From contig LCOA01000002.1 of assembly GCA_001002405.1 (NCBI GenBank), positions 1 through 54,801 of the forward strand: a stretch of 54,801 nucleotides of DNA. Direction: 5' to 3'. The notes under the pieces are model-generated. The model saw only the letters and a list, made by a program, of their open reading frames with translations, had not been told where the DNA came from and searched no databases. The position numbers and the translations under genes were made by a program. Below are positions 33,339-53,279 of the stretch, in pieces. Position 1 is the first letter of the stretch. Each line of letters starts with the position of its first letter. The stretch comes from Candidatus Amesbacteria bacterium GW2011_GWA1_47_20 (lineage in GTDB: Bacteria > Patescibacteriota > Microgenomatia > CAZETR01 > Amesbacteraceae).

Positions 33339-33366
33339 TTGACAAAATATTGACGGATGATATAAT
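33339..33366 (+). promoter_or_regulatory. Near-consensus sigma70-type promoter
   Basis: TTGACA (33339-33344), N16, TATAAT (33361-33366); ATG follows at 33374. Confidence 0.55.
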
Positions 33367-33373
33367 TTCGATT

Positions 33374-33571
33374 ATGAAAAATGAACTGGCTCAATTGTTG
33401 GCAGTATTGAACAAGGGGGTGATGACAGAAGATTTGAAAGAAGCCGTTGTTGGGGGAAGGATCAGTGAAGAAGCGGCTGCCAGACTTGCCCAGGCGGATC
33501 ATAGAGGTGGAAGTAGCTCAGTAGACGCCTTAAAGAGTAATGCTGCGGTGCCGTCTACCACGGAAGCCTAA
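33374..33571 (+). CDS. Candidate leaderless 65-aa helical protein (or a noncoding/antisense transcript)
   Basis: ATG 33374 lies 7 nt after a consensus TTGACA-N16-TATAAT promoter. Translation MKNELAQLLAVLNKGVMTEDLKEAVVGGRISEEAAARLAQADH... Its 3' end overlaps the convergent gene by 42 nt. Confidence 0.3.
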   Translation: MKNELAQLLAVLNKGVMTEDLKEAVVGGRISEEAAARLAQADHRGGSSSVDALKSNAAVPSTTEA

Positions 33572-35188: not shown

Positions 35189-36663
35189 AGTTTTTTAACT
35201 TCAAAAAACAGTAGATATTCCTGGGTACCGTCGGGTTTGACGGCCTTGGGGTAGGAAGAAATCAGTTTCAGTCCTAATTGGTCCGGGTCGCCTTGGAAAC
35301 GGGTGGAGTTGATGACTAAAAATACTTGATTATCGGCTAAGGCAGATTTAAGTTTGTCGGGCACAGAATCAATCCACACTCCAACGCCAACGATTCTTAC
35401 TGTAGGGAGATCGTTTAAATACAGCTGGAGGGCGTCAAAGGGGGTACCAAAAAATCCTTCGCTGCCTACTAAAACTGGACCGGCGGCGGCGGACTGGCGC
35501 AGGCGCCGAGCTACGTCGCGTAGGCCGTATCCAGCTGTCCAGTCTTCCAAATATCCCGATCTCTCAATGCGCGGCAGCGGTAAAGATTCAGGACTAGTGA
35601 CGGCTAAATAATTTATGATCAGAGCCGGAACAATGATCAATCCTGCTGCAGCAACAGATAAAAAATGTTTCTGGGTGCGTTGACCGATATGTTCCAGCGC
35701 GTGAGCAATTAAAATAACGGCAAAGGGTACGGTAAACATCAGGTAACGGGCGGTGAATGCCCGAGCCACGGCAGATTGCACCAGAGTGGGGCCTAGCCAC
35801 CAAGCGACTAAAACTAGGCGGGCTTGCCAATGGGATTTGCTTCCAGCTAAAACACCGGAAACGGCGGCCAATAATCCTAAGGGGGTAAGAAAATACGCCA
35901 GGAAAAGAAGTGTGTCCTTGAGATGGGGTAAGAACGGATCGAGGGGATGAGCTAAGACTTCTGCTAAGGGGAATACGTAATCCGCGTTGCGCAGAGCGAT
36001 CATGTGGAATTCTGGTCCCAGGCGCAGAATGTTGTACATGCCAAAGGCAATGACATAAGTAGTGAGTAGATACAGCAAATGTTTTGGGTGGGGTTTAACG
36101 ATGAGGAAACTGAGAGGCAAGAGACCAAAGGCGAAAATGGCCGGAGATTTGGTCAGCCAGGCAAACCCTAGAGCAAAACCGGCAAACATGGCCAGATCTA
36201 ATCGCTTGTGCACAAAAGACAGATACGAAAAGACAAATGTCCACACCAAAAACATGGTCAATAAACTGTCTGTTAGGGCCATACGGTCAAAGAAAACAAA
36301 ATACGGAATAACCGCGGCCAACAAACCCGCTATAAGAGAAAGACGGAGATTAGAAAATAGAAAGTAGGAGACGAGAGCGATGCCGACGACGGAACCTAAA
36401 CCGGCTAGGGCCGAGAGAGCCCGGCCGGCTAGAAGCGGATCGGAGAAAAGTTTCAACAGAGGGATGGTGGCCCACATGAAGAGAGGTTGTTTACCATCGG
36501 AGAGAGGCAGGAAGCGTAAAGTAGACTCTGCCCGCATGACCTGGGACCAACGGACATAAATGGCCTCATCTGCAAAAATGGGGAAAGAGTTAAGATTCCA
36601 AAAACGAAGTGCTCCTGCTAGCAAAAGAATGATTAGACTAGTTATCCAGAAGTTTTTGCTCAT
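35185..36663 (-). CDS. ArnT/PMT_2-type GT-C membrane glycosyltransferase
   Basis: First-loop FADEAIYVRWSQVM (DExxY motif), GKQPLFMW, and about 11-12 TM segments. Confidence 0.75.
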   Translation of the reverse strand: MSKNFWITSLIILLLAGALRFWNLNSFPIFADEAIYVRWSQVMRAESTLRFLPLSDGKQPLFMWATIPLLKLFSDPLLAGRALSALAGLGSVVGIALVSYFLFSNLRLSLIAGLLAAVIPYFVFFDRMALTDSLLTMFLVWTFVFSYLSFVHKRLDLAMFAGFALGFAWLTKSPAIFAFGLLPLSFLIVKPHPKHLLYLLTTYVIAFGMYNILRLGPEFHMIALRNADYVFPLAEVLAHPLDPFLPHLKDTLLFLAYFLTPLGLLAAVSGVLAGSKSHWQARLVLVAWWLGPTLVQSAVARAFTARYLMFTVPFAVILIAHALEHIGQRTQKHFLSVAAAGLIIVPALIINYLAVTSPESLPLPRIERSGYLEDWTAGYGLRDVARRLRQSAAAGPVLVGSEGFFGTPFDALQLYLNDLPTVRIVGVGVWIDSVPDKLKSALADNQVFLVINSTRFQGDPDQLGLKLISSYPKAVKPDGTQEYLLFFEVKKL

Positions 36664-37363
36664 ACTTGTTAGTATACCTGATGCGCCACAGGTCGCGGAA
36701 CATATTGACCACGCCTTCCCAAAAACGCACGGAACTACCGGGAGCGTCGGCCCAAGTAACGGGCATTTCCAGGATTTTTAATCCTGCCCTCTCGGCCAGA
36801 TACAGAATCTCCACATCAAACATAAAGCGGTCGATCTGACTCCGAGCAAATAGCTGGCGGGCGATAGACCCGCGGAAAACTTTGAATCCGCATTGAGTGT
36901 CTTTAAAACGACGCAACCCGACTAAGATATATTTAATTTGATCGAAAATTATGGAAGCTAACTTGCGAAAAATTGGCGGTTTTTTGTTAATGTGAGATTT
37001 AGCTTGTCCCCGAGAGCCAATGACAATATCTACGCCATTTAGCTGTTTAAGTATCTTTGGCACTTCGGATAGGGGTGTGGAGAGATCGGCGTCCATAAAA
37101 AGTACCGGATCTCCCCGGGAAGCCAAAACTCCGGTGCGCACGGCGTAACCTTTGCCACGATTGGGGTGGTAACTGATTAAACGGGCGCGGGGTGTTTTGG
37201 CAATAACTCGAGTCACCGTCTGGACGGTGGCGTCACTTGAGCCATCATCCACAATGATCAATTCAAAATCGGGATAGTGGGTACGGAAAAACTTGAGAAC
37301 TGATCCCAGGAGCGGCCCCAAGCGCTTGGCCTCATTAAAGCTGGGTATGATTACGGAGAGCAT
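36638..37363 (-). CDS. Polyprenyl-phosphate glycosyltransferase (GT2, ALG5/DPM1/GtrB-like)
   Basis: LSVIIPSFNEAKRL, IIVDDGSSDAT, FMDADLSTPLSE and DTQCGFKVFRG. ATG 37363 preferred over the track start 37432. Confidence 0.8.
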   Translation of the reverse strand: MLSVIIPSFNEAKRLGPLLGSVLKFFRTHYPDFELIIVDDGSSDATVQTVTRVIAKTPRARLISYHPNRGKGYAVRTGVLASRGDPVLFMDADLSTPLSEVPKILKQLNGVDIVIGSRGQAKSHINKKPPIFRKLASIIFDQIKYILVGLRRFKDTQCGFKVFRGSIARQLFARSQIDRFMFDVEILYLAERAGLKILEMPVTWADAPGSSVRFWEGVVNMFRDLWRIRYTNKYEQKLLDN

Positions 37364-38084
37364 ATGCGTTGGTAAGGGCGCGCCAGCGGACAAGAAATAA
37401 TTCAGTAACTCCGGCAATGGCGTCGCGGACAAAACTCACCCGGCGGGTTTCCTGATGCCGCCAGGAAACAGGAACCTCCGTTATTTTGTAGCCCAGTTTG
37501 CGCCCGAGATACAACATCTCCAAATCAAAGCCAGGATTGACCGCGGGGCCAGACACAACACCGGGAACGTGGACCTTGTTCATGACGGCAAAAATTTTGC
37601 GGGCAGCGAGTTTGTTAAAAGCCTTAAAGCCGCATTGAGTGTCCCAAAATGGCAGACGGAGAATGAGAGTGCGCATAATAATCATCCCAAAAGCTAAAAT
37701 TTTTCTAAAAACCGGGGCGTTGGGACGACCGGAACGGGAACCGATGGCAATGTCTGTTCCAAATTTAAAAAGCGGAATAAATTTGTCCAGCTCGGAAATG
37801 GGCGTGGCCTGATCCATATCGGTAAAGAGAATAATATCCCCGGCGGCAGCCAGAGCACCGGTGATGACCGTGGCGGCTTTGCCCTGGTGAGGGTTGTCTA
37901 TAATTCTGATAGGGTATTTTTGCAATAAAGAGAGAGTGGCATCCGAGGAGCCGTCGTTGACGGCGATTATCTCCCAGGAATATTTCTGTTTTTTAAGATA
38001 TTCAAGAGCTACATCCAAAGATCCTCGCCGGAGGTTGTCTTCTTCGTCATAGGCCGGAATAATAACAGATAAATATGGTTTCAT
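37335..38084 (-). CDS. Polyprenyl-phosphate glycosyltransferase (GT2, ALG5/DPM1/GtrB-like), tandem paralog
   Basis: LSVIIPAYDEEDNL, AVNDGSSDAT, FTDMDQATPISE and DTQCGFKAFNK. ATGA overlap at 38081-38084. Confidence 0.8.
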   Translation of the reverse strand: MKPYLSVIIPAYDEEDNLRRGSLDVALEYLKKQKYSWEIIAVNDGSSDATLSLLQKYPIRIIDNPHQGKAATVITGALAAAGDIILFTDMDQATPISELDKFIPLFKFGTDIAIGSRSGRPNAPVFRKILAFGMIIMRTLILRLPFWDTQCGFKAFNKLAARKIFAVMNKVHVPGVVSGPAVNPGFDLEMLYLGRKLGYKITEVPVSWRHQETRRVSFVRDAIAGVTELFLVRWRALTNAYALRNHTQL

Positions 38085-39586: not shown

Positions 39587-40796
39587 AGTAATGCAGACGG
39601 AATAATACAGGAGTACCAAATGGATCATAAACCACGGGCTCAAAGGTATCTTTGGGCTGAAGCGGGTGTTTGCCAAGCCATTTTGCGGAGACCAAAGAAA
39701 TGGGGCCGGGTGACTGAAGGCGAGGATCGTCGGGAGAGACGACTTCGATAAGGCCTATGCGGCGGATGAAATCCCGGAAATGATATGAATTTTTAGAAAG
39801 AGACGGAGGAACCGGACGCAGATGGAAGGCCAAATATGGCCCTGGGTCGGGATAGACGTCGTCGGCCAAAAGTACTGGGGAACTGGCTAGATTTATCACT
39901 TCTGAAAGTCCCCACCCGCGATCAACCCAGGTACGATGGGGTAAGAAATGGGTGGAGAAATAAGCCATGGGCAAAAGTAAGACCAGGCCCAAATAAACGG
40001 CGACGCGGGGAAGGTAACGGCCGGCCATAAGTATGAGCGACAGGTAAAACGGAAATGGCGTGATACCAAATCCGGCTAAGAGCAGAGACGCGATAGCCAG
40101 GACGGCAATGAGTTTAGACGGGCGGCGGAAAAGAAAAGGCAGGAGAATGATAAGCAAGGGGGGGATTTTCTGAGCCTTATCGCCAAAGCCAAAAAGAAAT
40201 GAGGGGTTGAGAGCCGAAAAAATATTTTGCAAGTAAACCAAAACAAAGTAAAGTTTGTTGTGCAATATTTTGGCTAAAAGTGGAAAGGCGGAGTGTTCCC
40301 CCCGGAGAGAATTGATGGTGGTAATTAAGCTTTGGGAGACAAAAGACGGCTTAAGAGCCAAAGCGGCGGCGATGGTTAAAATAACGGCCGGAATGATAAA
40401 CTTTTTTCTTTTGAGGGCGGCGATGAGTAGACTTAGAAACAAGACAACTAATTTGGCATCGTAATTACCAGGCCAAAGAAAGGCCGGGGTAGCCAAAAAA
40501 ACTAATCCTAATGTAGGCGAAGAAAAAGCAACCGCGAGAAGCATGGCAGGTAAAAGCCAGACGAGAAACTCAAAACCCAATACCCCAAATGGGACAAACA
40601 GGTAACTGGTAAGGGGAAATTGGTAACCGGCGGGACCATGGAAAAGATAGGGCAAGACGTTGCCTACTTCATCCCGGCCGAAACGCAGGAGCGTCCAGGC
40701 TCGGTAAGAATGCAAAAAATAATCGGTGGTTTGACCTATGTTTAGCAGGAGGTAAAGTTTAATTACAATTAGAATTAGGAGTGTCAATTTTTTCAT
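39570..40796 (-). CDS. Degenerate GT39-like paralog (first acidic motif eroded)
   Basis: GQTTDYFLHSYRAWTLLRFGRDEVGNVLPYLF aligns to WDEAALGYNAYSLLLTGRDE with WDE replaced by TDY. ATG 40796 forms an ATGA overlap with the upstream stop. Confidence 0.5.
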   Translation of the reverse strand: MKKLTLLILIVIKLYLLLNIGQTTDYFLHSYRAWTLLRFGRDEVGNVLPYLFHGPAGYQFPLTSYLFVPFGVLGFEFLVWLLPAMLLAVAFSSPTLGLVFLATPAFLWPGNYDAKLVVLFLSLLIAALKRKKFIIPAVILTIAAALALKPSFVSQSLITTINSLRGEHSAFPLLAKILHNKLYFVLVYLQNIFSALNPSFLFGFGDKAQKIPPLLIILLPFLFRRPSKLIAVLAIASLLLAGFGITPFPFYLSLILMAGRYLPRVAVYLGLVLLLPMAYFSTHFLPHRTWVDRGWGLSEVINLASSPVLLADDVYPDPGPYLAFHLRPVPPSLSKNSYHFRDFIRRIGLIEVVSPDDPRLQSPGPISLVSAKWLGKHPLQPKDTFEPVVYDPFGTPVLFRLHYYVPTN

Positions 40797-42181
40797 TTGG
40801 TGAAGCCAAACATGGGGTCGGTGAGGTTGGAATTGGCTCCGGAGCAAGACTGCTTTACTTGATCAGGAAAGTAGCGGTTTTGGTCGGGAAGAACTACTCC
40901 CAAACCCCCAAAGGTGGCATCCAGACGACCGGCCCGGGTATGGGGAAAAACTATGGTGTATACGGGGCTACCGCTATCTGGGTTGTTAACGTGCAAGTTT
41001 TTCAACCAGAAGAAATACCGGTAGCCTAGTTCACGGCCTGGGCTAGTCATATAAGAAATAGCGATACAGGGAAAATCTTGGCGCTTAGCATCTGCAACTA
41101 TATATGCAACTACATTTTTTCTTTCCACGTAGCCATTACCGTCGCCTTTAGAAGATAAGAAGAGGAATAAGTTTAACCCCAGAAAAGCGATAAGAAGTGT
41201 AGTAGTCCGTAAACGAGATAACCGAGTAACTATAAGTGCCATGGCAACTAACCAGATAATGTTTAGGCCATTTAGGTAATATTCGGAAAGGAGTATGGGG
41301 TGAAGAGTGAAAAAAAAGATATACAACAATATCCAACCGGCAAAAATTAAACGTCGCTGGTGAGTTAGCAAGGTGATTAGAAGAAGTATCGGCAGGAAGT
41401 AAATATATGGTTCGTGAGTATCAAAGCCAACGATGTTGTTAATGTTTTTTGAAGTGTAGTGAATAACTTTATGGAGCTTATCGAGGTAGTCCGGACGGAT
41501 AGAGGAAGAAGTAAAGCTGGAGATCAAAGACCTGGATTGGATGAAGTCGTGCTTGGTTTCAAACAAAATCAGAGGAGAAGTAGTAACAATAAAAATTAGG
41601 CCGGCGACAATCCAAGTTTTTAACGCGTGTTTGCGAAAGAAAACCAACGGGGCCAACAGACCCAGAGCCAGATGAATATGCCACACTAACCCAAAAAGAA
41701 AAGCACTCAAGTACAATCGGCCGGTCATGATAGCGTAATAAAACCAAATGGACCACAGCATGACCGGCGTAGTGGGCACGACTCCCCTATCGGTACTGGC
41801 TAACATGTACGACCCGGCGTAAAACAGAGTCGTTATGACGGCCATTTTCTGGCCATGAAGTTTGGTGATCACGTAATACAGACTAAAAAGCGAGGCCGCA
41901 CCGATGACTACTGAAAGCCCCAAGCCCCCCACGGGGTCCATGTTGGTTACGAAGTAAAAAGGAATTAAGGAGTAGTAAAAAAGCGGGCCGATGTAAATCC
42001 CTGGAGAAGAGGTGAGTTGACCAACTAGGCGTAAATGTTTGTCCACTACTACGTCTTTGATAATCCACGAGGCCAGGTCACCGTCGTGGCCGTAACCGTA
42101 ACGAGCTACCAGCTGATAGGTGCGCATGAACATCCCCAACACAAAAATCAAAATTATGAAGATGCGTGATTTACTGATCAT
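40793..42181 (-). CDS. GT-C-like membrane protein, second subfamily (DxGxD loop ... LIGP/VGQ ... GPxFYY)
   Basis: YGYGHDGDLASWIIKDVVVDKHLRLVGQLTSSPGIYIGPLFYYSLIP. Homologous to 42171-43565 and to the C-terminal half of 43562-45712. AT-richer than its neighbours. Confidence 0.5.
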   Translation of the reverse strand: MISKSRIFIILIFVLGMFMRTYQLVARYGYGHDGDLASWIIKDVVVDKHLRLVGQLTSSPGIYIGPLFYYSLIPFYFVTNMDPVGGLGLSVVIGAASLFSLYYVITKLHGQKMAVITTLFYAGSYMLASTDRGVVPTTPVMLWSIWFYYAIMTGRLYLSAFLFGLVWHIHLALGLLAPLVFFRKHALKTWIVAGLIFIVTTSPLILFETKHDFIQSRSLISSFTSSSIRPDYLDKLHKVIHYTSKNINNIVGFDTHEPYIYFLPILLLITLLTHQRRLIFAGWILLYIFFFTLHPILLSEYYLNGLNIIWLVAMALIVTRLSRLRTTTLLIAFLGLNLFLFLSSKGDGNGYVERKNVVAYIVADAKRQDFPCIAISYMTSPGRELGYRYFFWLKNLHVNNPDSGSPVYTIVFPHTRAGRLDATFGGLGVVLPDQNRYFPDQVKQSCSGANSNLTDPMFGFTK

Positions 42182-43565
42182 AGAGAAGGCGTGTGCGACG
42201 GCTGACTGTAAGTGGACCGAAAGTTAACGTAGTGTCGATTTTACCAATGCCATCCTGACGAGTTTGCCAAGCGGATAAAAATTGAGGGTGTTCACCATCC
42301 GGTTCATAAATAGTGTATAGCCGCGAAACTAATTGTGCAGAAGGTCGGGCCGATTTTCCCCGCCAGAGGAAGAGATAGTCATAGGCGTGGGGAATAACCG
42401 GGGGAACGTAGACATCGGTGTTAAACGACTGGCCGGCGGCATCCTGATAAATCCAATCCACAGCCTGGATTTGGGGCGTGAGAGTAATGTAGCCTGGAAG
42501 AGTCTGGCGGAAGTATGCCAGATGATACGACACGTTTTGGAAAATAAAAACCGCCAGAAAAATGGCTGCGGCCCAGCGGCCGGCGGATAGCCAAATGGCG
42601 GCGATTAAAAGCGTAAAAGCCGGATAGACGCCGGTAAAATAATAGTCCCAAATGTAATCGTGGTTGCCGTGATAAAAAAGCAGGAGAATCAAGGGGGTGA
42701 CCCACCAGACAATAAGAATGGTGGTAGGCAGTGGCGGCAGCTTGCGGCGAACAAGTAAAAAGAGAGCGGGTAGAGACACGGCAAAAATAGCCCAGGCCCG
42801 GTCGGTGGTGAAATACTTGTTGGTAAAAATGGTGTAGTAAAAATTGAGACGTTTGGTATATGCCCCCAGATTGGGCTGGAAACTTCTTTCACTGACCAGG
42901 AAACGTTTGAATGAGTTGAATAAAATGTTCTGATGGCGGAAATTGAAAACAATTTGGGGCATGAGCGTCAAGCCAAAAAGCAGCAGGGCGACCAGGGGAA
43001 TCTTTAACTTATGCAGAAAAGCGATAATTAGAATCGCAGGCAGGAAAAAGATCGCAGAGGCGGCTTCCAGCTGCAAAGACAGACCGGCACACAGACCCAC
43101 TAACCACCAGCGGCGCTTAAGAAGTGAGTCGAGAGTAAGCACGGCAAACAGAGGTAAGGGTGTAGGATTGGACAGCCAGCGCTGATAGCCGACAAACTGC
43201 TGGGACACTGCGGTAATAAAAGCCGCCACCAGGCCTACATTGGGTCCCAAGAATTCCTCACCGAGCTTGTATATATAGTAAATGGCCAGGACGTTTAAGA
43301 GAGCCAAGAAGACCGCCGGGTACACCGGATTGCCGCCACCTAAGATATAAGCCGGGGTGATGAGGTAATAATAAAATGGCCCTAGAAAAATGCCTTCGAT
43401 ACCGGTGGTGGGGCCAATGAGGGTGAGTTTGCCAGAGTGCCAAATGTCCCACACCACTTTGGCATCCCGACCCTGGTCAAACCAAAAACCCAAAAAATCC
43501 GCCACTCGGTAAGTGCGGAGAAAAAGAGCCAGGGCTAAGATTGCAATGAGTAAGATCTTTTTCAT
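42171..43565 (-). CDS. GT-C-like membrane protein, second subfamily
   Basis: GFWFDQGRDAKVVWDIWHSGKLTLIGPTTGIEGIFLGPFYYYLITP. ATG 43565 (MKKILLIAIL) forms an ATGA overlap with the upstream stop; the track start is 43622. Confidence 0.55.
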   Translation of the reverse strand: MKKILLIAILALALFLRTYRVADFLGFWFDQGRDAKVVWDIWHSGKLTLIGPTTGIEGIFLGPFYYYLITPAYILGGGNPVYPAVFLALLNVLAIYYIYKLGEEFLGPNVGLVAAFITAVSQQFVGYQRWLSNPTPLPLFAVLTLDSLLKRRWWLVGLCAGLSLQLEAASAIFFLPAILIIAFLHKLKIPLVALLLFGLTLMPQIVFNFRHQNILFNSFKRFLVSERSFQPNLGAYTKRLNFYYTIFTNKYFTTDRAWAIFAVSLPALFLLVRRKLPPLPTTILIVWWVTPLILLLFYHGNHDYIWDYYFTGVYPAFTLLIAAIWLSAGRWAAAIFLAVFIFQNVSYHLAYFRQTLPGYITLTPQIQAVDWIYQDAAGQSFNTDVYVPPVIPHAYDYLFLWRGKSARPSAQLVSRLYTIYEPDGEHPQFLSAWQTRQDGIGKIDTTLTFGPLTVSRRTRLLYDQ

Positions 43566-45712
43566 TTTCCAGAGGGATTGTGAATAAGGCGGAATACTTT
43601 TACTCCCCAGGGAAATTCCCATTGGCGGTCAATTTTGGCCCAGCCAAAAGCGGCCACCTCCCACAAAGGATTATTTATGGGCTCGCACACCGGATCTTCG
43701 CAAATAACAAACAGCTGATCTGCCAATTTTTGGTGAATGGTGAAATACGGGGTGCCATAAATATCTAAGAAATACCGGTAGCCCAGGTCGTAATTCGTTT
43801 TGGCCAGAAGGGCCAGGTTGAATGGCCGGGCGGCTGATTGATCGGTCACAAATCTGGCAATTTCCCGGGTGTGAGCCAGCTGATTGTTGGGCGGGTAGCG
43901 CAAGGGAGAATTCAGCAAGGCAGCCGCGATTAGCACTATCAGCACAATAGCCCCGGTTTTTTTAAATTTTTCTACAACAAAGCCCAAAAGTAAAAACGGA
44001 GCCGGAAACAAAAATCCATAGTAATGATCATAGATATGCTGCTTATACAGACCTAGCCCAATTAAACCTACCCCCATCCAGACGGTAGTGAACCAAAAAT
44101 CTTTGGAAGGGCGGTGTTTAATTAAATAAATTAATCCGCCGATCAATAAAATTCCCATGGCTACACCCAACGGCTTGGACTTGGCAGCAAGAAGAGAGGT
44201 GTTGATATCTACCCACAGCGGCCAAAGATTGGGTAAGGCTTTGTAGGCTTTGAGATTAACTGTGGTCTGTCGATCGGCGAAGAAGGTGGTGATGGCCCGG
44301 GCATTGATCCAGCCGTGACGCATGTCAAACCAGAGAAGAGGAGACATGAGCACTGCAAAAACCAAGACAGCGTAGAGCGTATAGCGTTTAGCGTCTAGAG
44401 GTTTACGCGCCAGGAACCAGAAAAGACCCACGACGGGGAAAAGGAGTAGGCCTAAGTAATGAGAGTTGAGAACGAAGGCCAAAGAGGCTGCGGAAATGAC
44501 TAGCCAGCGCCAGTAGCCTAAACGCCAGACTTTCCAAATGCCGTACATGGATAGAAGCGCAAAAAAGGGCATAATATTGGGATTCCAAGACGAACGAGAA
44601 TAGGTGATAACTGTGGGAGATAGAGAGTAGAGAGTAGAAATTAGGAGGGCCGGAACGCGGCCAAACCATTGGCGGCCGATCCACCACAAAAGGGCCACGG
44701 TGGCCACACCGAACACAGCCACCATAATTGCCGGGCCCACTGGCGAGAATTGAGATAAAGATAGAGGAATAAGAAGTAAGTAATAATATAAGGGACCAAG
44801 ATACATATTGCCGATGGATGTGCCCGGACCAATAAGGGTGAATTTGCGGCCCAAAAGCATATCCCGGACGACGGCCACATCCCGACCTTCATCGCCTAAG
44901 AAAGTCATATACTGATCGATTTTGTTCAGCCGGACAAAAACCGCTAACGCCAAAACCGCCACTATGGCCAAAGCTTCCCAACGGAAAATTGCCCGACCTT
45001 GTTCGACTAATATCTCCTGTTTTAATTGCCACCAATATATAGCCAGTTCGCGCCAGGCTTTAATCCAAACTTTGGGATTACCACCCGTGGCTGTCCCGGC
45101 GGTTCTGGGCAAATGAGTCACGGGCATTTCGGCAATCTTCATGCCCCGGGCTCGTATCCCCGCCAACAATTGAGTATCAATCATCGCCCCGTCGGAAGGA
45201 ATACTCACCCGGCGCAAAACGTCCCGCTTGAATACTTTGAATCCGCAATCAATATCGGAGGCCAGGTATCCGAACAGGGCCCGGATGCCCGTGTTCCATA
45301 ACCAGCGGACAAATTTACGATGCAAGGGATCGCTATCGTTGGCTCTGATTCCAGAAACCATGTCTGCCTTTTCGGTTTCCATCTTTCTTAAAAGATCCGA
45401 AACTTCGGAAATATCAAACTGATTGTCCGCGTGAGTCATGACAATTAATTCCTTGGTGGCGGCTTTGAATCCGGCTTTGAGGGAGCCACCGTAGCCGCGA
45501 TTGGGGCGGTTGGTGACGATTTTCAAATTGGGGATTTTTTTGACAAAGCTTCTGGCTATCTCACCAGTTCTGTCCGATGATCCGTCATCGACCAAAATTA
45601 TTTCGGCGTCTAATTTAAGTTTTTTGGTGACGGCGGATACCGAAGTCAGGCATTTGGCGACATTCTCTTGTTCATTGTAGGCGGGAATAACTATCGAGAC
45701 GCCTTTTGACAT
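43562..45712 (-). CDS. Fusion protein: N-terminal DPM1-like polyprenyl-phosphate glycosyltransferase (GT2) plus C-terminal GT-C-like membrane domain
   Basis: N-terminal part: VSIVIPAYNEQENV, ILVDDGSSDRT, THADNQFDISE and DIDCGFKVFKR. From about residue 250: FLGDEGRDVAVVRDMLLGRKFTLIGPGTSIGNMYLGPLYYYLLLIP plus about 12 TM segments. Operon head. Confidence 0.75.
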   Translation of the reverse strand: MSKGVSIVIPAYNEQENVAKCLTSVSAVTKKLKLDAEIILVDDGSSDRTGEIARSFVKKIPNLKIVTNRPNRGYGGSLKAGFKAATKELIVMTHADNQFDISEVSDLLRKMETEKADMVSGIRANDSDPLHRKFVRWLWNTGIRALFGYLASDIDCGFKVFKRDVLRRVSIPSDGAMIDTQLLAGIRARGMKIAEMPVTHLPRTAGTATGGNPKVWIKAWRELAIYWWQLKQEILVEQGRAIFRWEALAIVAVLALAVFVRLNKIDQYMTFLGDEGRDVAVVRDMLLGRKFTLIGPGTSIGNMYLGPLYYYLLLIPLSLSQFSPVGPAIMVAVFGVATVALLWWIGRQWFGRVPALLISTLYSLSPTVITYSRSSWNPNIMPFFALLSMYGIWKVWRLGYWRWLVISAASLAFVLNSHYLGLLLFPVVGLFWFLARKPLDAKRYTLYAVLVFAVLMSPLLWFDMRHGWINARAITTFFADRQTTVNLKAYKALPNLWPLWVDINTSLLAAKSKPLGVAMGILLIGGLIYLIKHRPSKDFWFTTVWMGVGLIGLGLYKQHIYDHYYGFLFPAPFLLLGFVVEKFKKTGAIVLIVLIAAALLNSPLRYPPNNQLAHTREIARFVTDQSAARPFNLALLAKTNYDLGYRYFLDIYGTPYFTIHQKLADQLFVICEDPVCEPINNPLWEVAAFGWAKIDRQWEFPWGVKVFRLIHNPSGK
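44617..44644. repeat. Heptanucleotide tract (GAGATAG AGAGTAG AGAGTAG AAATTAG) in the GT2-GT-C fusion gene
   Basis: Encodes LISTLYSLS. Resembles the tract plus TTAGGAG flank at 8913-8940. Confidence 0.8.
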
Positions 45713-45726
45713 GCTACAATTGTATC
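45713..45726. promoter_or_regulatory. 14-bp divergent intergenic region with palindromic overlapping -10 boxes
   Basis: GCTACAATTGTATC. Plus strand: TG-n-TACAAT (45715-45720), N6, ATG 45727. Minus strand: TACAAT (45724-45719), N6, ATG 45712. Confidence 0.5.
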
Positions 45727-46773
45727 ATGAAAATCAGCCGAGAATTGCTGATCTTGGCCACAGTTTCGGTAGTATCGACGTTGTCCTTGTGGATTCCGGT
45801 GGGAATGCAAAAGGTATATGAGAATTTTGATGGGCCGTACTATATCGTGATTGCCAAAAGCTGGTATGACAAAGTATTTATCCGCAACAATTTTTCCTTC
45901 CCCTTGCCTTTGGAATATTATCCGGCGCACTTCCCTTTGTATCCGGCTTTGATTTGGCTGTTTGGGGGAACGCCGACGGCGGCGGTAATAATAAACATAG
46001 TGGTATCGGCACTAACAGCTGTAGTAGTGTACAAAATATTTGCCGAATTCAAATGGGGAAATCCATTGATGGCCGGATTGGTGTGGCTGTTTGCCTGGCC
46101 GAGGATGTGGGTGACCAGATCAATTGTCAGCCCGGAAACACTATTTATCTTATTTGTAATGGTGGCGCTGTATGGATTTCATAAAAAATCATATTGGCTG
46201 GCGGCCATAACCGGGGCGCTGGCGGTGGTAACCAAAAGCCCGGGTATTTTGCTTTTTCCAGCTTTTCTCCTGGCGTCGAAAGGTGACAAAAAAATTTGGC
46301 CAACTCTGCTAATCCCAGCAGCGCTGATGGCAGTATTCGGGTTTTACTTCCTGCGCACCGGGGATTTTTGGGCATATTTTCATTCCGGAGATAATATTCA
46401 TTTACAAATTCTGCCATTTAGGGTTTTTGACAGCAACCAGGCATGGGTGGGACAGTGGTGGCTGGAGGATATTTTGTGGATTTACTTAATCGGGGGGATC
46501 GGGGTAGTTAGGGCTTTTAGAAAATCAGCTGTCTGGGGGTGGTGGGGGGCGATATTTTACGCGGTGATTTTATTTGTATCCCACCGGGATATTGCCAGAT
46601 ATTCACTGCCATTGGTACCAGTAGTTATTTTAGGCTTGGCAGATGTTTTAGAGAAGAAAGAGGTCAGATGGGTACTGCTGCTACTAATTATCCCTGTGTA
46701 TTTCTACAGTCTCAATTTCCTGGCTCACAACACGGCTGCTATTTCGGATTGGACGCCTTTTTTCTCCAAATGA
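45727..46773 (+). CDS. PIG-V/Gpi18-like membrane mannosyltransferase-like protein
   Basis: ENFDGPYYIVIAKSWYD...YYPAHFPLYPALI resembles the FDGxHY...FFPLYP signature of the partial gene at 1-623. Polytopic. ATG 45727 lies 6 nt after TACAAT; the track start 45706 is TTG. Confidence 0.5.
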   Translation: MKISRELLILATVSVVSTLSLWIPVGMQKVYENFDGPYYIVIAKSWYDKVFIRNNFSFPLPLEYYPAHFPLYPALIWLFGGTPTAAVIINIVVSALTAVVVYKIFAEFKWGNPLMAGLVWLFAWPRMWVTRSIVSPETLFILFVMVALYGFHKKSYWLAAITGALAVVTKSPGILLFPAFLLASKGDKKIWPTLLIPAALMAVFGFYFLRTGDFWAYFHSGDNIHLQILPFRVFDSNQAWVGQWWLEDILWIYLIGGIGVVRAFRKSAVWGWWGAIFYAVILFVSHRDIARYSLPLVPVVILGLADVLEKKEVRWVLLLLIIPVYFYSLNFLAHNTAAISDWTPFFSK

Positions 46774-47872
46774 CGAGGGTGTACATGAGGTAGTTGTAAG
46801 GCATAACTAAAAATCCGATTGTCAGGGGTAAAACGATCTGGCGGTATTGCGAACCAAGAAGATAATCTGTGGCTACTCCCACCCCTACTTGGATCAGCAA
46901 GCCCCCGGCCGAAGTAAGGTTGAATTGCAAAAACTTTGAGGCAATAGCCGCCAGACCATTGATCTGCTGATCCCTGAATGTCCAGAGATTGTTCCAGGTG
47001 AAATTGCTTAAGATAGCCAATTCAGTGGATAGACCCCAAGCCGCCCAGCCCGGCCAGCTTAACTTAGTAAATAGATACAAAGCGAAGGCATTGACTAAAT
47101 AGCCCAAGAAACCTACCAGGCCGAATTTGATAATTTTTTGCTTGTCTTTGATGCCCAAAATAATTGCCACCTTAAAGGTGGAAATCATTTCCTTGGGGTT
47201 AAATTTAGATTTTTCTTTGGCCCGAGAGGCGAATTCTAAAGGGACCTCGACGACCTTTTTAGCATTTTTAATACTTTGATAAAGCAAGTCTACTTTGTAA
47301 GCAAATCTAGTAGGCTCCATCAGGTGTTCCAGATCAATCTGGTCCAGAACTCCCTTAACCCGGGTAAGTCTGAAACCGGTAGTCAGATCGTGAATTTGTG
47401 GTTTGAGAAGGACCATCCGGATAAAGAGGTTCCCCAAGAAACTCACCGCTTTGCGGCTAAATTCCCATTCTTTGGGGATGGAACCACCCCTAATATACCG
47501 GCTGCCAATCACATAATCGGCTCCGTTTAAGAACGCGGCCACCATATCTTTGACGAATCTGGGTGGATGTTGAAAATCAGCATCCATTTCCATAACCGCA
47601 TCAGCACCAAGTTTGTTAACTGCATACTGCATGCCCCGGATATAGGCCCAGCCCAAGCCCTCTTTGGGTTTTTGCAGCAGGTGCAGATTTTTATATTCGG
47701 CCTGATATTTTTTAACGATGTTCCCCGTGCCATCCGGAGAAAAATCATCGACGACCAGAAGATGCATCTCGGTATTCTTGATTTGGGGAAATTCTTTGCC
47801 AAACAGCTCTTCAATCATCAGGCCGATATTCTCCGCTTCATTGTACGCGGGCATAATAATTACGACTTTCAT
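46739..47872 (-). CDS. Polyprenol/dolichol-phosphate mannosyltransferase-like GT2 fused to a C-terminal GtrA-like membrane domain
   Basis: [27 protein letters not shown] and [11 protein letters not shown], then [20 protein letters not shown]...[10 protein letters not shown] (GtrA-like, 4 TM). Confidence 0.8.
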
Positions 47873-47889: not shown

Positions 47890-48522
47890 ATGCTAAAAGT
47901 TGATATTTTGACGCTATTCCCAGAAATGTTTACAGGGCCATTTGATCATTCAATTGTTCGGCGGGCGACTGATAAGTCGCTAGTGGAAATAAAAATCCAC
48001 AACTTGAGGGATTGGGCGACAGATAAATATAAATCGGTAGATGATAAACCGTATGGGGGAGGACCGGGAATGGTCATACGCGTTGACGTCGTCAACGCAG
48101 CGGTCACAGCCCTCAGGTCTCAACGCACAAAAGTTATTTTGTTAGACGCCGGAGGAAAGAAATTTAACCAGAAAAAAGCAGCTGATTTATCACATGATGA
48201 GCACTTGATATTGATTTGCGGACACTATGAAGGCGTGGACCATAGAGTGCATGAACATATTGCAGATGAAGTAATTTCCATTGGTGACTATGTGTTATCC
48301 GGCGGGGAGGTTCCGGCGATGGTGGTGGTAGATACAATTGTGCGGTTGTTACCTGGGGCGTTGGGAAATGAGCAATCTTTGATTGAAGAATCACATAATG
48401 CGGGAGAAGCCGAATACCCTCAATATACCCGCCCCGAAGAATACAACGGCTGGAAGGTTCCTGAAATTCTTCTCTCTGGTGATCACGCCAAAATTAAGAA
48501 GTGGCGATCCCCTGCTCAATAA
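47890..48522 (+). CDS. trmD: tRNA (guanine37-N1)-methyltransferase
   Basis: [35 protein letters not shown] and [12 protein letters not shown]. Short C-terminal tail (210 aa). Confidence 0.9.
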
Positions 48523-49330
48523 GTTTATCTACTACTTGCTTCCAGGGTGAAAAATCAAAACTGGGTTTGAGTCCGCCAAATTTGGGGTAACGCTTGGGAT
48601 CAACCGACGACTTTTGCACGCCGGAAATATCTTTGCCTAATTTTTGCAAGAGATAGGTAATGATTTCATACGGGGTGGTCGTGTCCGGACAGCTCATGTG
48701 AAAGACGCCGGAGAGATTTTGATCAATGATTTTTTGCAGTGCCAGACAAGCCTCGTCAATATAGGTAAGAGAAATTTGCTGGTCGGTAAAAAGCGGATAA
48801 AGTTTGCCCTGATTAAACAGGTCTAGGGGTTTGCGCAGATAATCGAGCTTAGCTGGGTATTTGGCCCGGATGGGGGAGATAAGACGGACGACGGTTCCCC
48901 TGTCCCCCACAACTCTTTCTGCTTCGGCTTTGGAATAACCATACCAAGTTAGCAGTTGGCTGTTGGTCTCTGGCTGATGGTCTGCCGCGTAAGGACCGGG
49001 GTCGGCGGCAGATCCGGAAAAGACATAATTGGTGGAGATGTGAATTAAACGGGTATTAGCAAGAAGTGCAGCGACAAGATTTTTGGTTCCTTCCACATTT
49101 ATTTGCCAGCAGGGTCCGTTTTGGTCGCCACGTTGTTTTTCAGCTTCGGAGACGTTGGTGTAGGCGGCAAAGTTCAAAACAACATCCGGATTTTCCTTGG
49201 CCAGATATTCTCCGGGGTGAGCCAGGTCAAATTCACCCAGACCCGGAGTGAGAAGATCTTGGGGATGCGGGTACAGCTCTACAAATCTTGATCCCACTAG
49301 TCCGAAAGCTCCTGTAACTAGTGTTTTCAT
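48494..49330 (-). CDS. rmlD: dTDP-4-dehydrorhamnose reductase-like SDR
   Basis: [16 protein letters not shown] Rossmann motif, YGYSKAEAE (YxxxK), 278 aa, adjacent to rmlCBA. Confidence 0.7.
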
Positions 49331-49331
49331 A

Positions 49332-49895
49332 CTACATTATATCTGGTTCGACGAAATCGAAGGGTAGCTGTTTTGGATCAATTCTATGTTCTTCGGTTTC
49401 AGAGTCAGCTTTGAATACTTGATCCGCAAAATAAACCAAGGTCACCGGAAAGTTGTTGGGATTTATGAAACCGTGAGCCACCCCATGGGGAATATACAAC
49501 GCCTTATCTGGTGACAGTACTACTTTGGTTTTTTGACCATATGTTTCTGACCCTTCCCTTAGATCCACTAGACCTACTAACAAAATGGAGTTGGTCGTCC
49601 AAATTTCATTTTGACTGGGATGGATATGCCAAAACCTTTTGCCTCCTGCGGCGATATATGACATGTTGGATTGACGGATCTTAAAATTAATACCAAATTC
49701 GATTAATGCTTGAAAATGGAAACTTTCTGATAATCTAAAGTTTTCCTTAAACCACCCGCCCAAGTCGTCAGGGAAGACGTTGATTTTCATAAGCACTACG
49801 TCTTTCGGATGTGGTTCTTTACTGTAAGTCTGCTGAAGCAAATTAACCCCTTTTTCGGTTTTGATTTCCTTGACTGTTTTTTTTATAAATCCCAT
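49332..49895 (-). CDS. rmlC: dTDP-4-dehydrorhamnose 3,5-epimerase-like cupin
   Basis: RFWHIHPSQNEIW...LYIPHGVAHGFIN cupin pattern. Located between rmlB and rmlD. Confidence 0.65.
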   Translation of the reverse strand: MGFIKKTVKEIKTEKGVNLLQQTYSKEPHPKDVVLMKINVFPDDLGGWFKENFRLSESFHFQALIEFGINFKIRQSNMSYIAAGGKRFWHIHPSQNEIWTTNSILLVGLVDLREGSETYGQKTKVVLSPDKALYIPHGVAHGFINPNNFPVTLVYFADQVFKADSETEEHRIDPKQLPFDFVEPDIM

Positions 49896-49896
49896 G

Positions 49897-50916
49897 TTAT
49901 TTTTTATATATTGATTCAGCGCGCGCTTTTAGTGGTCTCCACCACCATTTGTTTTGCTGATACCATTCTACGGTTTTGGTTAACCAGATGTCAAAATCAT
50001 GCGTGGATCTCCAACCCAACTGGCGGCGGATTTTTGAACTGTCGAGTGCGTAACGCCTATCGTGACCTGGCCGATCAGGAACGTAAGAAATTAACGATTC
50101 TGGCTTATCCATAATTTTTAGTATTGTCTTAACAATATCGATGTTGTATTTCTCACAATTAACACCGACTAGATAAGTCTCTCCGGGTTGACCTTTTCTC
50201 AACACGATATCGATCGCCGAGCAGTGGTCGTCAACATGTATCCAATCTCTCACATTTTTGCCATCTCCGTATACAGGAAGAGGCTGATTGTCCATAGCGT
50301 TGGTAATTAGCCTGGGAATAAGCTTTTCTGGATCCTGATATGGGCCGTAGTTATTTGAGGTATTAGTGATGGTTATAGGAAGCCCAAAAGTGTGTAAATA
50401 CATTCTGACCACGAAATCGGCGGCTGCTTTGGAGACAGAGTATGGGCTTCTCGGATCGTAGTGGGAATTTTCACTAAATTTGTCACTCGTAGTCAATTTC
50501 AGTGTCCCAAAAACTTCATCTGTGGAAACGTGATGGAATCGCTTCACGTGGTGTTTAACTGCCTGACGGCAGAGAACAGTAGTTCCGACAATGTTTGTTT
50601 TGACGAAGATGTCTGGATCAATAATGGATCTGTCGACGTGGGATTCAGCTGCGAAGTTCACAACGGCATCTATGCCCCCCATGATCTTGTCGACCAGCTT
50701 TTCGTCACAGATATCTCCTTTAACAAAGTTGTAATTTTTCTTCCCAACGATATCTTTTAACGATGATGGGTGGCCAGCATAGGTAAGTTTGTCGAGATTG
50801 ACAATGTAATCTTTGGGGTATTTGTTAAACCAATACTTAATGAAATTCGAGCCGATAAATCCCGCTCCACCGGTAACTAGCAATTTCATATCTTGATACC
50901 TCTTTTCCGAGCCCAA
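49897..50916 (-). CDS. rmlB: dTDP-glucose 4,6-dehydratase
   Basis: KLLVTGGAGFIGSNF, HVSTDEVFG, YSVSKAAADF and RPGHDRRYALD. Confidence 0.9.
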   Translation of the reverse strand: MGSEKRYQDMKLLVTGGAGFIGSNFIKYWFNKYPKDYIVNLDKLTYAGHPSSLKDIVGKKNYNFVKGDICDEKLVDKIMGGIDAVVNFAAESHVDRSIIDPDIFVKTNIVGTTVLCRQAVKHHVKRFHHVSTDEVFGTLKLTTSDKFSENSHYDPRSPYSVSKAAADFVVRMYLHTFGLPITITNTSNNYGPYQDPEKLIPRLITNAMDNQPLPVYGDGKNVRDWIHVDDHCSAIDIVLRKGQPGETYLVGVNCEKYNIDIVKTILKIMDKPESLISYVPDRPGHDRRYALDSSKIRRQLGWRSTHDFDIWLTKTVEWYQQNKWWWRPLKARAESIYKK

Positions 50917-51611
50917 TAGAGATTGGCTGCGAGCAGGCTGTCAAATGTGCCTACATCATGCCAATAACCTTTTAGTTCGTGCCACTGCATAGTGCCCTCT
51001 TTAATGTAAAAATTTTGAACATCAGTGATCTCCAGCTGGCCACGTTTAGAAGGCTTAAGTTTTTTTGCCACTGCAAAACAGCGGCTATCAAAAATATATA
51101 GACCCGTGGAAGCATATGGAGAGGGGGGTTTGACTGGTTTCTCTACAACGCCTATGATTTTCTTAGCTTTACTAAAGATTGGAACGCCGAAGCGCTGGGG
51201 GTCAGGTACTTTTTTAAGAAACATTACCGCCCCTCTTTTAAATGAGGCAGCTTCCCGAGAAATATCGGCGTCTGTGGTGTTGTCCCCGAGAATGAGAGTC
51301 AGCGTATCCCCATCGACAAAGTCTTCGGCTACTTTTAACCCATCGGCTATCCCGCCAACCGGATTTTCCTGGTAACCATATTCTAAGTGGTCGAGGCCTA
51401 GCTCTTTGCCATTTTTAAGTATCTGCACAAATTGTCCGGAGTGGGGTCCGGAGACAATAACCATAACATTCTTAATGCCGGCTTTAATCAAAGTTCGCAA
51501 AGGATAGAAAATCATCGGCTCATCGTAAATGGGGAGAAGGTGTTTGTTGGTGACGTAAGTTAGGGGTTGAAGCCTGGTAGCTAAACCGCCGGCGAGAACG
51601 ACACCTTTCAT
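50886..51611 (-). CDS. rmlA: Glucose-1-phosphate thymidylyl/nucleotidyl-transferase (short form)
   Basis: MKGVVLAGGLATRLQPLTYVTNKHLLPIYDEPMIFYPL. Confidence 0.8.
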   Translation of the reverse strand: MKGVVLAGGLATRLQPLTYVTNKHLLPIYDEPMIFYPLRTLIKAGIKNVMVIVSGPHSGQFVQILKNGKELGLDHLEYGYQENPVGGIADGLKVAEDFVDGDTLTLILGDNTTDADISREAASFKRGAVMFLKKVPDPQRFGVPIFSKAKKIIGVVEKPVKPPSPYASTGLYIFDSRCFAVAKKLKPSKRGQLEITDVQNFYIKEGTMQWHELKGYWHDVGTFDSLLAANLYWARKRGIKI

Positions 51612-52174: not shown

Positions 52175-52440
52175 GCGCGCAGAATGAGCGAGGCAAAAAT
52201 AAGTACCGCAAAAATGGCTACAAGTAAATATTCGAAAACTATCTTGATATGCAAATCCCGATGATGGGCGTGGTGAACAACTCCCCAAACAACATAAGAG
52301 GCGGCCATGCTGACTAGAATTCCTAGCTGAAGAAAACGGTGATAGTCGAACCAGAAAATGCCCCACAGGCCCACAAGCATCACACAGAGAAGGACAAAAT
52401 AATGCAAAGGGTGATGGGCGAAATCGTGTTCGAATGTCAC
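52171..52440 (-). CDS. Small His-rich three-TM membrane protein
   Basis: (M)TFEHDFAHHPLHYFVLL...WGVVHHAHHRDLHIK... GTG 52440 forms a GTGA overlap with the upstream stop. Confidence 0.4.
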   Translation of the reverse strand: MTFEHDFAHHPLHYFVLLCVMLVGLWGIFWFDYHRFLQLGILVSMAASYVVWGVVHHAHHRDLHIKIVFEYLLVAIFAVLIFASLILRA

Positions 52441-53279
52441 AGTATTTGGCCTTTGGAAATAATGAAGGCGGCTATTAACAAGGCTAACATAAATAACAGA
52501 TGGGCAAAACTTTTGCTGGTCCAGCGGACAACTTTTTTCTGATAAACGGCAACCAGATCAATAACCAGTACGGTGACAAAAATGATAAGCAAGGTAAGGG
52601 AAACGGCCTTGGTTACGTCAAATGGAGAAACTTTGGGCGTGACGATGCCGACAGTTGACGTGGCCGCGGAAACGGGCTGGACAATGCGGGCGGCGGGAGC
52701 GATAGCCGGAGCAGCCGAGAGTTTGGTACCAAACAATTGCACTACCAAAGTAGTCTCCCGGCCCTCTAATGTGCCGTCGACCACGGCGATACCAATGTCC
52801 CGGTAATTACTGTTGAGGAGATTTTCGCGGTGGGTAGGTGAAGCCACCCAGGCGTCAACGATGGATTTGGCATCCGAAAAATCCCGGGCCAGGTTTTCTC
52901 CGGCGTAGCGGTAGGCATACCCGGCAGAGGTGACGAAATACCAAGGTTGAGTGCCAACGGGCGAGACATGGGCCCAGTAATTTCTGGCAAACATATCCGC
53001 GGCTTTTTGAGCGGCGGCTGTGGAAAGTTCGCTGTCTAATTTCACTTCCGACAAACCTGCAGCTGTCCGCTGAACATTGGTCAAGCGGACAATGTCCTCC
53101 GGAGAAATCTGGGAAGCGTAACCTAAGATCTGCGGGTAACCAGTGGCTAATTGACTGAGAAGTAGTTGGAATCCCAAAAAGAAGCCGATGGTAAGAACTA
53201 AAGATGAGGGGTGAAGAAACTTGGCCCGCTGATTATTGGATTCGTGGGGAAAGAAGAGGTGGCGCAGGAATTTCCACAT
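52437..53279 (-). CDS. CAP/SCP (YkwD-like) domain protein with N- and C-terminal TM segments
   Basis: NVQRTAAGLSEVKLDSELSTAAAQKAADMFARNYWAHV...GENLA...WVASPTHRENLLNSNYRDIGIAV. Confidence 0.75.
   Translation of the reverse strand: MWKFLRHLFFPHESNNQRAKFLHPSSLVLTIGFFLGFQLLLSQLATGYPQILGYASQISPEDIVRLTNVQRTAAGLSEVKLDSELSTAAAQKAADMFARNYWAHVSPVGTQPWYFVTSAGYAYRYAGENLARDFSDAKSIVDAWVASPTHRENLLNSNYRDIGIAVVDGTLEGRETTLVVQLFGTKLSAAPAIAPAARIVQPVSAATSTVGIVTPKVSPFDVTKAVSLTLLIIFVTVLVIDLVAVYQKKVVRWTSKSFAHLLFMLALLIAAFIISKGQIL

Follow-up and report, generated by a model that had tools for sequence, protein, structure and literature searches.

A predicted polyprenyl-phosphate sugar synthase fused to a GT-C-type membrane glycosyltransferase in an Amesbacteria glycan gene cluster

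The minus strand of contig LCOA01000002.1 of Candidatus Amesbacteria bacterium GW2011_GWA1_47_20, analysed here as one stretch of 54,801 nucleotides (nt; hereafter the window), carries at 43562..45712 a gene in which a GT2 domain resembling polyprenyl-phosphate sugar synthases is joined to a polytopic membrane domain of GT-C type. The locus raises two questions: whether such a fusion exists as a protein at all, and whether its two halves serve the same pathway. An earlier note, made from the DNA letters of this stretch, had proposed that the fusion physically couples donor synthesis on the cytoplasmic face to donor use on the outer face. Our analysis indicates that the gene is genuine and that it represents a conserved pair of modules which occurs in two interchangeable forms, as a fusion or as neighboring genes. 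We favor, with a probability of roughly 0.6, the reading that it encodes a two-enzyme membrane protein, whose GT2 module would make a polyprenyl-phosphate sugar inside the cell that is then flipped and used outside by the GT-C module.

Two glycosyltransferase modules in one polypeptide

The open reading frame (ORF) starts with ATG and encodes 716 amino acids (aa), with no internal stops in the ORF list. All the motifs on which the earlier note relied were recovered in it, namely IPAYNE (residues 9-14), DDGSSD (42-47), ADNQ (95-98) and CGFK (156-159) in the N-terminal part and FLGDEGRD (271-278), LIGP (293-296) and GPLYYY (306-311) further on. A scan with domain hidden Markov models (HMMs) placed Pfam Glycos_transf_2 (PF00535) at residues 6-168 (E 9e-33) and PMT_2 at residues 307-461 of this same ORF, bearing out the claim that GT2 and GT-C share a single polypeptide. 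The features of the gene are listed below, with TM1 denoting the first transmembrane helix of the GT-C module.

43562..45712, minus strand: whole fused gene, 716 aa, with GT2 module, linker, GT-C module and outer C-terminal domain
45083..45712, minus strand: GT2 (GT-A fold) catalytic domain, residues 1 to about 210, like polyprenyl-phosphate glycosyltransferases
45002..45076, minus strand: long helix, residues 213-237 (VWIKAWRELAIYWWQLKQEIL...), assigned by DSSP on the model; proposed membrane-interface helix, similar to interface helix 2 (IFH2)
44927..44983, minus strand: TM1, residues 244-262, the top hydropathy peak (2.26) and a helix over the same residues in the model
44879..44902, minus strand: FLGDEGRD motif (residues 271-278), located in the first outer loop and supplying acidic residues that are candidates for catalysis or metal binding
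43913..44983, minus strand: polytopic GT-C membrane module, residues 244-600, from Pfam PMT_2 and PMT, the domain model and Foldseek
43565..43882, minus strand: alpha/beta domain at the C-terminus (residues 611-716), predicted to lie on the outside; C671, E672 and C676 are invariant

Independent comparisons agreed with the donor-synthase-like character proposed for the N-terminal domain. Its best solved sequence relatives were ArnC (E 7e-19, residues 3-207) and the Pyrococcus DPMS (PfDPMS); a ranking with the family profile put ArnC (3e-29), PfDPMS (4e-25) and GtrB (4e-23) on top, and Foldseek searches with the full-length model returned the same proteins for the GT2 part (PfDPMS 5mlz, 5e-12; ArnC 9bhe, 9e-12; GtrB, 8e-9), the matches to the three spanning E 5e-12 to 1e-7. 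The profile alignments with ArnC (residues 3-227) and PfDPMS (3-260) enter the interface-helix region, whereas those with generic GT2s extend only to about residue 115. Within the family N13, E14, D43, D96, Q98, D153, G157, F158, K159, H200 and R203 are invariant, and E14, D96, Q98, D153 and R203 remain so across sequences down to 43% identity. By motif, E14, D96, Q98 and R203 appear to correspond in PfDPMS to Glu12 of the beta1-alpha1 loop, Asp91, Gln93 and Arg202 of the A-loop, which are involved in metal and donor binding and in control of the A-loop (PMC5526996). On these sequence and structural matches the module belongs to the DPMS/ArnC/GtrB type, and synthase activity is predicted for it.

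The AlphaFold2 model of the fused protein contains helices at residues 130-147 and 213-237, the latter being rich in W, K and R and ending where the GT2 gene ends in relatives that encode the two modules separately. The module has no membrane helices of its own, which sets it apart from GtrB and ArnC with two C-terminal membrane helices each and from PfDPMS with four; correspondingly, the split-form GT2 genes encode about 233 aa and no membrane helices. The sole span after the GT2 domain is TM1, and because it is the only one between that domain and the first outer loop it would also anchor the GT2 module. This single span between a GT2 domain of cytoplasmic type and the acidic loop gives the in/out arrangement expected of the protein.

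In the C-terminal part Pfam reported PMT_2 at 36.8 bits (cut-off 26.1) and PMT at 24.4 (cut-off 22.7), and a sequence-only search of the PDB gave just a marginal match to Pmt2 (E 0.63). Given that sequence alone yielded only Pfam-level evidence here, a fold comparison was needed. The AlphaFold model of the GT-C domain on its own is confident, with a predicted local distance difference test score (pLDDT) of 91.6 and a predicted template modelling score (pTM) of 0.91. Among PDB structures its 44 top-ranking matches belong without exception to GT-C enzymes, headed by ArnT 5f15 (E 2e-7; query-based score, TMq, 0.60) and followed by ALG12, AglB, PglB, Pmt4, AftD, STT3, ALG9 and Emb; the concern that this domain might not fold as GT-C was thus not borne out. 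By analogy with ArnT the module would have about 13 membrane helices. The C-terminal domain, with model strands at 631-636, 666-671, 692-699 and 705-711, probably faces outward, as suggested by the odd number of helices and the architecture of ArnT and PglB. The full-length model scored pLDDT 87.5 and pTM 0.74, and none of the PDB chains among its structural matches covered both domains.

GT-C enzymes carry catalytic acidic residues right after the first membrane helix. In the fused protein D274, E275 and D278 of the GDEGRD segment sit just after TM1, in a loop that we take to be comparable to the 'DE' motif of PMT. L272, G273, D274, E275, G276, R277 and D278 are invariant both in a set of 68 and in a set of 78 sequences, the three acidic residues being retained across the 78 down to 43% identity, and over 50 further GT-C positions are likewise invariant. 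The persistence of invariant residues in GT2 and GT-C alike at such divergence argues that both active sites are under selection.

Could the fusion nevertheless be a chimeric assembly, or two genes whose separating stop or frameshift was masked by a sequencing error? The junction for which the earlier note had raised this possibility, at about 44900-45000, corresponds to residues 237-270 and takes in the linker, TM1 and the beginning of the first outer loop. Relatives do have split versions, some with one in-frame stop between the modules. However, an ATG comes 1-14 codons or less after each of these stops, as in ordinary adjacent genes, and an independent ENA assembly holds an identical fused protein. 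In addition, among the 120 best homologue matches, clustered at 90% identity, more than 90 are collinear and full-length (about 710-745 aa), contain both Pfam domains and are 42-85% identical to the window protein. They come from many independent assemblies (NCBI, JGI, ENA and Logan) with contigs of up to 1 Mb, and the linker sequence is kept within the fused clades. An artefact therefore has a negligible probability, and a hidden stop or chimera is excluded as far as the sequence data go. At 90% clustering the named fused homologues are from Amesbacteria, Woesebacteria or Microgenomates; at 50% there are about ten fused clusters, which reach Daviesbacteria, Beckwithbacteria and the WWE3/Katanobacteria clade. 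A tblastn search of 72,556 plasmids gave matches to the GT2 domain only, with no record covering at least 80% of the fused protein.

Fused and split states, and comparison with known systems

The FLGDEGRD motif proved specific enough to seed a genome scan, which used one genome per species and found a relative in at least 530 genomes. The 80 best loci were classified with domain HMMs built from the family alignment:

fused: 32 of 80
orthologous GT2 and GT-C adjacent, in different frames and usually overlapping: 30 of 80
orthologous GT2 and GT-C adjacent, in the same frame: 10 of 80
not classifiable: 8 of 80 (5 at a contig end, 3 with only a weaker-scoring GT2 upstream)

The comparison of fused with split genes that the earlier note had called for thus gave 32 fused loci and 40 adjacent pairs in these 80 species genomes. 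In the split loci the break falls exactly within the linker of 10-20 residues, the GT2 products having an end such as LWWKLR, and the separate GT-C genes begin 5-20 residues ahead of the TM1 helix. For example, in the syntenic Amesbacteria locus MEXP01000009, which is split in three independent assemblies, a 233-aa GT2 ending in LWKKLR overlaps by 19 nt a 484-aa GT-C that starts just before TM1. On a neighbor-joining tree of the GT-C domain, a rough one without support values, the state changed at least five times, and this tree suggests that the split state is ancestral. This alternation implies that the two modules are functionally linked and, equally, that each works as a separate polypeptide. 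The stops of the same-frame split loci are TAA or TAG, or TGA where the gap is longer. Programmed read-through was considered for the eight to ten same-frame loci with a single stop and discarded in view of the closely following ATG.

Three loci (L073, 7956-10351; L075, 7974-10140; L055, 2583-4974) have the orthologous GT-C preceded by a more distant GT2, with a domain score of about 115-120 instead of about 300, which suggests that another synthase has taken the place of the original partner there. We also noted that many metagenome-assembled genome records titled 'uncultured Gammaproteobacteria bacterium' or 'Pseudomonadales' carry a Microgenomates-type locus with conserved synteny and 40-62% identity (for instance L005-L007, L010 and L011; TPA_asm, binchicken and SRP co-assemblies), as does one further record titled 'Clostridia bacterium'. 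These titles look like placeholder or wrong taxonomy.

A further search, seeded with the divergent fused member from the WWE3 clade (P0254), recovered other fusions with the following domain orders:

GT2-GtrA_DPMS_TM-PMT_2: about 890 aa (P0343, P0346, P0352), the complete set of a three-component system in a single polypeptide
YfhO-GT2: about 1040 aa (P0313, P0333)
GT2-PMT_2-PAP2: 932 aa (P0320)
GT2-PMT_2: 770 aa
GT4-PMT_2: 869 aa (P0279)

Those with a GT2 domain are not orthologous to the gene in the window, their GT2 domains being 31-40% identical to that of P0254 with about 30% of its length matched. They follow the same logic of a synthase joined to its GT-C user but differ in domain order and in carrying extra modules. 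One cluster of the GT2-GtrA_DPMS_TM-PMT_2 type has a Desulfobacterales-named member, and such fusions are therefore not confined to the candidate phyla radiation (CPR). The joining of a synthase to a GT-C hence recurs in public databases, where the proteins are labelled generically as 'glycosyltransferase', 'dolichol-phosphate mannosyltransferase' and the like; a published description of any GT2-GT-C fusion was not found in the literature searched, which omits most subscription journals.

The closest functional parallels are the three-component systems: GtrA/GtrB/GtrC of phage-encoded O-antigen modification, CsbB/GtcA/YfhO and GtlA/GtlB of teichoic acids, and ArnC/ArnE-F/ArnT. As proposed for the fusion, their GT2 makes the donor inside and their GT-C uses it outside. 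In contrast to them, synthase and transferase are here in one polypeptide, or in overlapping genes in relatives, the synthase is devoid of the 2-4 membrane helices of GtrB, ArnC and DPMS, and a separate GtrA-type gene was not detected beside the fusion. Ppm1 of Mycobacterium tuberculosis combines an Lnt-like membrane domain (D1) with a polyprenyl-phosphate mannose synthase (D2), the two being separate proteins in M. smegmatis. It resembles the present gene in that a donor synthase and a polytopic membrane domain are linked in certain species and separate in others. However, its membrane domain is N-acyltransferase-like rather than a PMT_2/GT-C consumer of the donor, and the order is reversed. 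Haloferax AglD, a GT2 whose membrane tail is long, and Rv3779 of M. tuberculosis are further leads that play no part in the argument.

A different kind of parallel is offered by GacI/GacJ of Streptococcus, WpsA/WpsB of Lactococcus and PpgS/Rv3632 of Mycobacterium, in which a GT2 of about 230 aa, likewise free of transmembrane helices, needs a membrane partner. GacI- and WpsA-type synthases have C-terminal amphipathic helices, and natural partner-synthase fusions exist (10.1101/180810; PMC10821137). The GacJ/WpsB-type partner is a small three-helix DUF2304 protein that is N-terminal in the natural fusions, whereas the partner here is a full GT-C and C-terminal; an engineered WpsA-WpsB fusion with the synthase first was inactive (PMC10821137). 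Pfam detected no DUF2304-type small membrane partner in the fused protein or its neighbors. Given that synthases of this kind depend on unrelated membrane partners, some of them naturally fused (10.1101/180810; PMC10821137), the fused GT-C might mainly anchor or activate the synthase, as do GacJ, WpsB or D1 of Ppm1. Other GT-C paralogues would then consume the donor, and the fused GT-C would act on a different one. Consistent with this, Lnt-GT2 fusions of the Ppm1 type (CN_hydrolase plus GT2) appeared among the GT2 relatives, in a group separate from the fusion, and three other synthase-like GT2s lie nearby. On the other hand, the acidic loop and the more than 50 other invariant GT-C positions argue that the module is a working enzyme and more than an anchor, and GT2s resembling polyprenyl-phosphate glycosyltransferases are also fused to other GT-C families (PMT_2 spaced by GtrA, and YfhO), pointing to functional pairing. 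We accordingly regard a purely anchoring role as distinctly improbable.

Operon structure and the glycan-gene neighborhood

The fused gene heads a chain of nine co-directional genes (45712 to 33530) that overlap or lie at most 4 nt apart and are followed by a 266-nt gap. This spacing, together with a -10-like element upstream, supports the proposal of the earlier note that it is the first gene of a 12-kb operon. The features in its vicinity that bear on the argument are:

42171..43565, minus strand: downstream GT-C paralogue 1 (ORF 42171-43622; PMT_2, 29.6 bits)
40793..42181, minus strand: downstream GT-C paralogue 2, recognized by its BLASTP match to the C-terminal domain of the fusion
45719..45727, minus strand: extended -10-like element TGaTACAAT, ending 6 nt upstream of the ATG of the fused gene
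46739..47872, minus strand: classical DPMS-type synthase, GT2 (PF00535) with its own four-helix GtrA/DPMS membrane domain (PF04138)
37335-38084 and 36638-37432, minus strand: two short GT2 genes in the same chain as the fusion, donor-synthase-like and without membrane helices

Homology of the fused C-terminal domain to the two genes downstream was confirmed with BLASTP (25% identity over 455 aa, E 6e-25, for paralogue 1; 26% over 223 aa of the N-terminal part, E 5e-14, for paralogue 2), although a Pfam scan of paralogue 2 gave no match. The likely ATG of paralogue 1, at 43565, overlaps the TGA of the fused gene as ATGA.

Generic scans of 33-48 kb did no better than chance, yielding 20 promoters where 19.4 were expected and 23 terminators where 20.6 were, and were not used; a family-specific test of the extended -10 element took their place. 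TGnTAnnnT precedes the GT2 start in 59 of 71 related loci, its end lying 3-25 nt (mostly 6-13 nt) before that start, where about 3% would be expected. The element TGaTACAAT may thus be a promoter that gives a leaderless or very-short-leader mRNA. In 45710-45729 the ATG of the fused gene (45712, minus strand) and the likely ATG of a divergent membrane-protein gene (45727, plus strand) are 14 nt apart. Between them a perfect 10-bp palindrome, TACAATTGTA (45715-45724), supplies one TACAAT -10 hexamer per strand, each exactly 6 nt from its ATG, and both genes may be leaderless and transcribed from overlapping face-to-face promoters. A perfect sigma-70 consensus on the plus strand (33339-33366; TTGACA, 16 nt, TG-extended TATAAT) lies inside the 266-nt gap, between two minus-strand genes and antisense into the gene at 33530-35188.

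The window as a whole consists mainly of surface-glycan genes. It contains at least 13 ORFs with GT-C-type Pfam matches (PMT_2, PTPS_related, GT87), and about seven more polytopic ORFs (about 400-560 aa) lack Pfam matches. This array, spanning 3732-46773, is unusually dense, mostly on the minus strand and organized in overlapping chains, and fills a large share of a 55-kb stretch in what is probably a small CPR genome. Four donor-synthase-like GT2s were detected in the window: the fusion, the classical synthase and the two short genes. The classical synthase, which is conserved in synteny, matches PfDPMS 5mlz over residues 1-329 (E 1.4e-45), and its C-terminal domain is the only occurrence of PF04138 near the fusion. 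For the short genes at 37335-38084 and 36638-37432 the best PDB match is again PfDPMS (3e-16 and 1e-16), then ArnC and GtrB, and equivalents of both are present in most related loci. ORFs at 48494-51611 look, from their translations, like the four enzymes of dTDP-rhamnose synthesis (Rml); these lie 3-6 kb upstream of the fusion, and nothing links them to its GT2. A further GT2 gene on the minus strand (23333-24111) appears broken into two ORFs, an N-terminal half (23692-24111) and a C-terminal half with EDMDYC (23333-23629). The region around it (22.8-24.1 kb) is the one part of the window where genes are loosely packed; the break reflects either a frameshift that made the gene a pseudogene or an error of sequencing.

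This neighborhood allows another role for the fused synthase. As in the lactococcal pellicle polysaccharide pathway, the polyprenyl-monophosphate sugar could be a primer rather than a single-sugar donor, to be extended by soluble GT2 and GT4 enzymes, flipped by a Wzx-like protein and finally polymerized or transferred en bloc by GT-Cs including the fused one. In Lactococcus, WpsA, which lacks transmembrane helices, and WpsB make GlcNAc-P-C55, which is then elongated into a repeat unit (PMC10821137). The window, too, has several soluble GT2 and GT4 genes, a methyltransferase and a Wzx-like (Polysacc_synt_3) gene at 31830-33263, about 10 kb from the fusion. However, the Wzx-like gene and most of the soluble glycosyltransferases are separated from the chain of the fusion by the 266-nt gap and belong to other blocks of genes, and the core conserved across genomes, which reads GT2, three GT-Cs in succession and then the short GT2s, holds no flippase. 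Moreover, many tandem GT-C paralogues better fit extracytoplasmic assembly of one sugar at a time. Priming is therefore, in our assessment, an unlikely role for the fusion, though one with a clear precedent.

Proposed pathway and its significance

In the two-enzyme scheme that we favor, the GT2 domain at the cytoplasmic face would transfer a sugar from a nucleotide sugar to polyprenyl phosphate, held at the membrane by its interface helix and TM1 of the GT-C. Removal of the membrane domain leaves PfDPMS attached to the membrane and with full activity (PMC5526996). The lipid-linked sugar would then be flipped, candidates for this step being the GtrA/DPMS-type domain of the neighboring synthase and the Wzx-like protein (31830-33263). 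On the outside, the fused GT-C, and perhaps also the two paralogues whose translation directly follows, would pass the sugar to an acceptor on the cell surface, which could be a glycopolymer or a protein. Two predicted surface proteins encoded on the minus strand (53290-54753 and 52437-53279) have low-complexity linkers beside a C-terminal membrane anchor, with a Gly run and TPTPTPTPTP in one and an Ala/Pro-rich stretch in the other. Similar disordered linkers rich in Ser/Thr are reported to be targets of GT-C glycosylation in streptococci (PMC12041528), and by this analogy the two proteins are acceptor candidates.

The physical coupling claimed by the earlier note holds in so far as both modules are in one chain, but it does not extend to direct channelling of the substrate, because the product must first cross the bilayer. 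What the fusion offers is 1:1 stoichiometry, co-localization and anchoring. In a bolder reading the GT-C module itself would route the lipid-linked sugar across the membrane, making the fused protein, or the obligate pair of GT2 and GT-C, a self-contained machine for synthesis, flipping and transfer without a separate flippase. Such an arrangement would explain why the synthase shed its helices and is tied to TM1, and why no GtrA gene accompanies it. Just two hints speak for this reading: a flippase gene is missing next to the fusion, and residues 248-437 weakly match TIGR03663, 'flippase activity-associated protein Agl23' (E 3e-10, with a score well under the cut-off). We consider it very unlikely.

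Several observations weigh against the two-enzyme reading with a separate flipping step, and temper our confidence in it. The fusion demonstrates a partnership, which is not the same as use by the GT-C of the product of its own GT2, and the pairings of donor and user are ambiguous in a cluster that has four synthase-like GT2s and numerous GT-Cs. The first Asp of the DXD-type motif is absent, the protein having HADNQ and the family consensus PADNQ; in PfDPMS the corresponding Asp89, the first Asp of DADLQ, contacts the sugar (PMC5526996). Every NCBIfam match is far under its equivalog cut-off (ArnC 85 against 529, AglJ 68 against 325, PpgS 52 against 370), and for this reason the sugar of the GT2 cannot be named. 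A GtrA gene standing on its own was not detected near the fusion, in a search that did not extend systematically to the small ORFs of the window. Finally, the topology derives only from models and hydropathy.

The fusion, which is common in its group, represents a known pathway in variant form and not a novel pathway. While the logic of this pathway is textbook knowledge, it is hard in most genomes to tell which synthase is paired with which GT-C; the alternation of a fusion with adjacent genes provides such a pairing of one synthase with one GT-C at the level of sequence. The 716-aa protein is compact and confidently modelled, and could serve as a single-chain system for the study of donor synthesis, flipping and transfer. 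It also suggests that a GT-C can assume the anchoring role that is held elsewhere by small partners such as GacJ and WpsB or by the synthase's own helices. This pairing comes from an uncultured bacterial group in which GT-C enzymes occupy much of the stretch analysed here.

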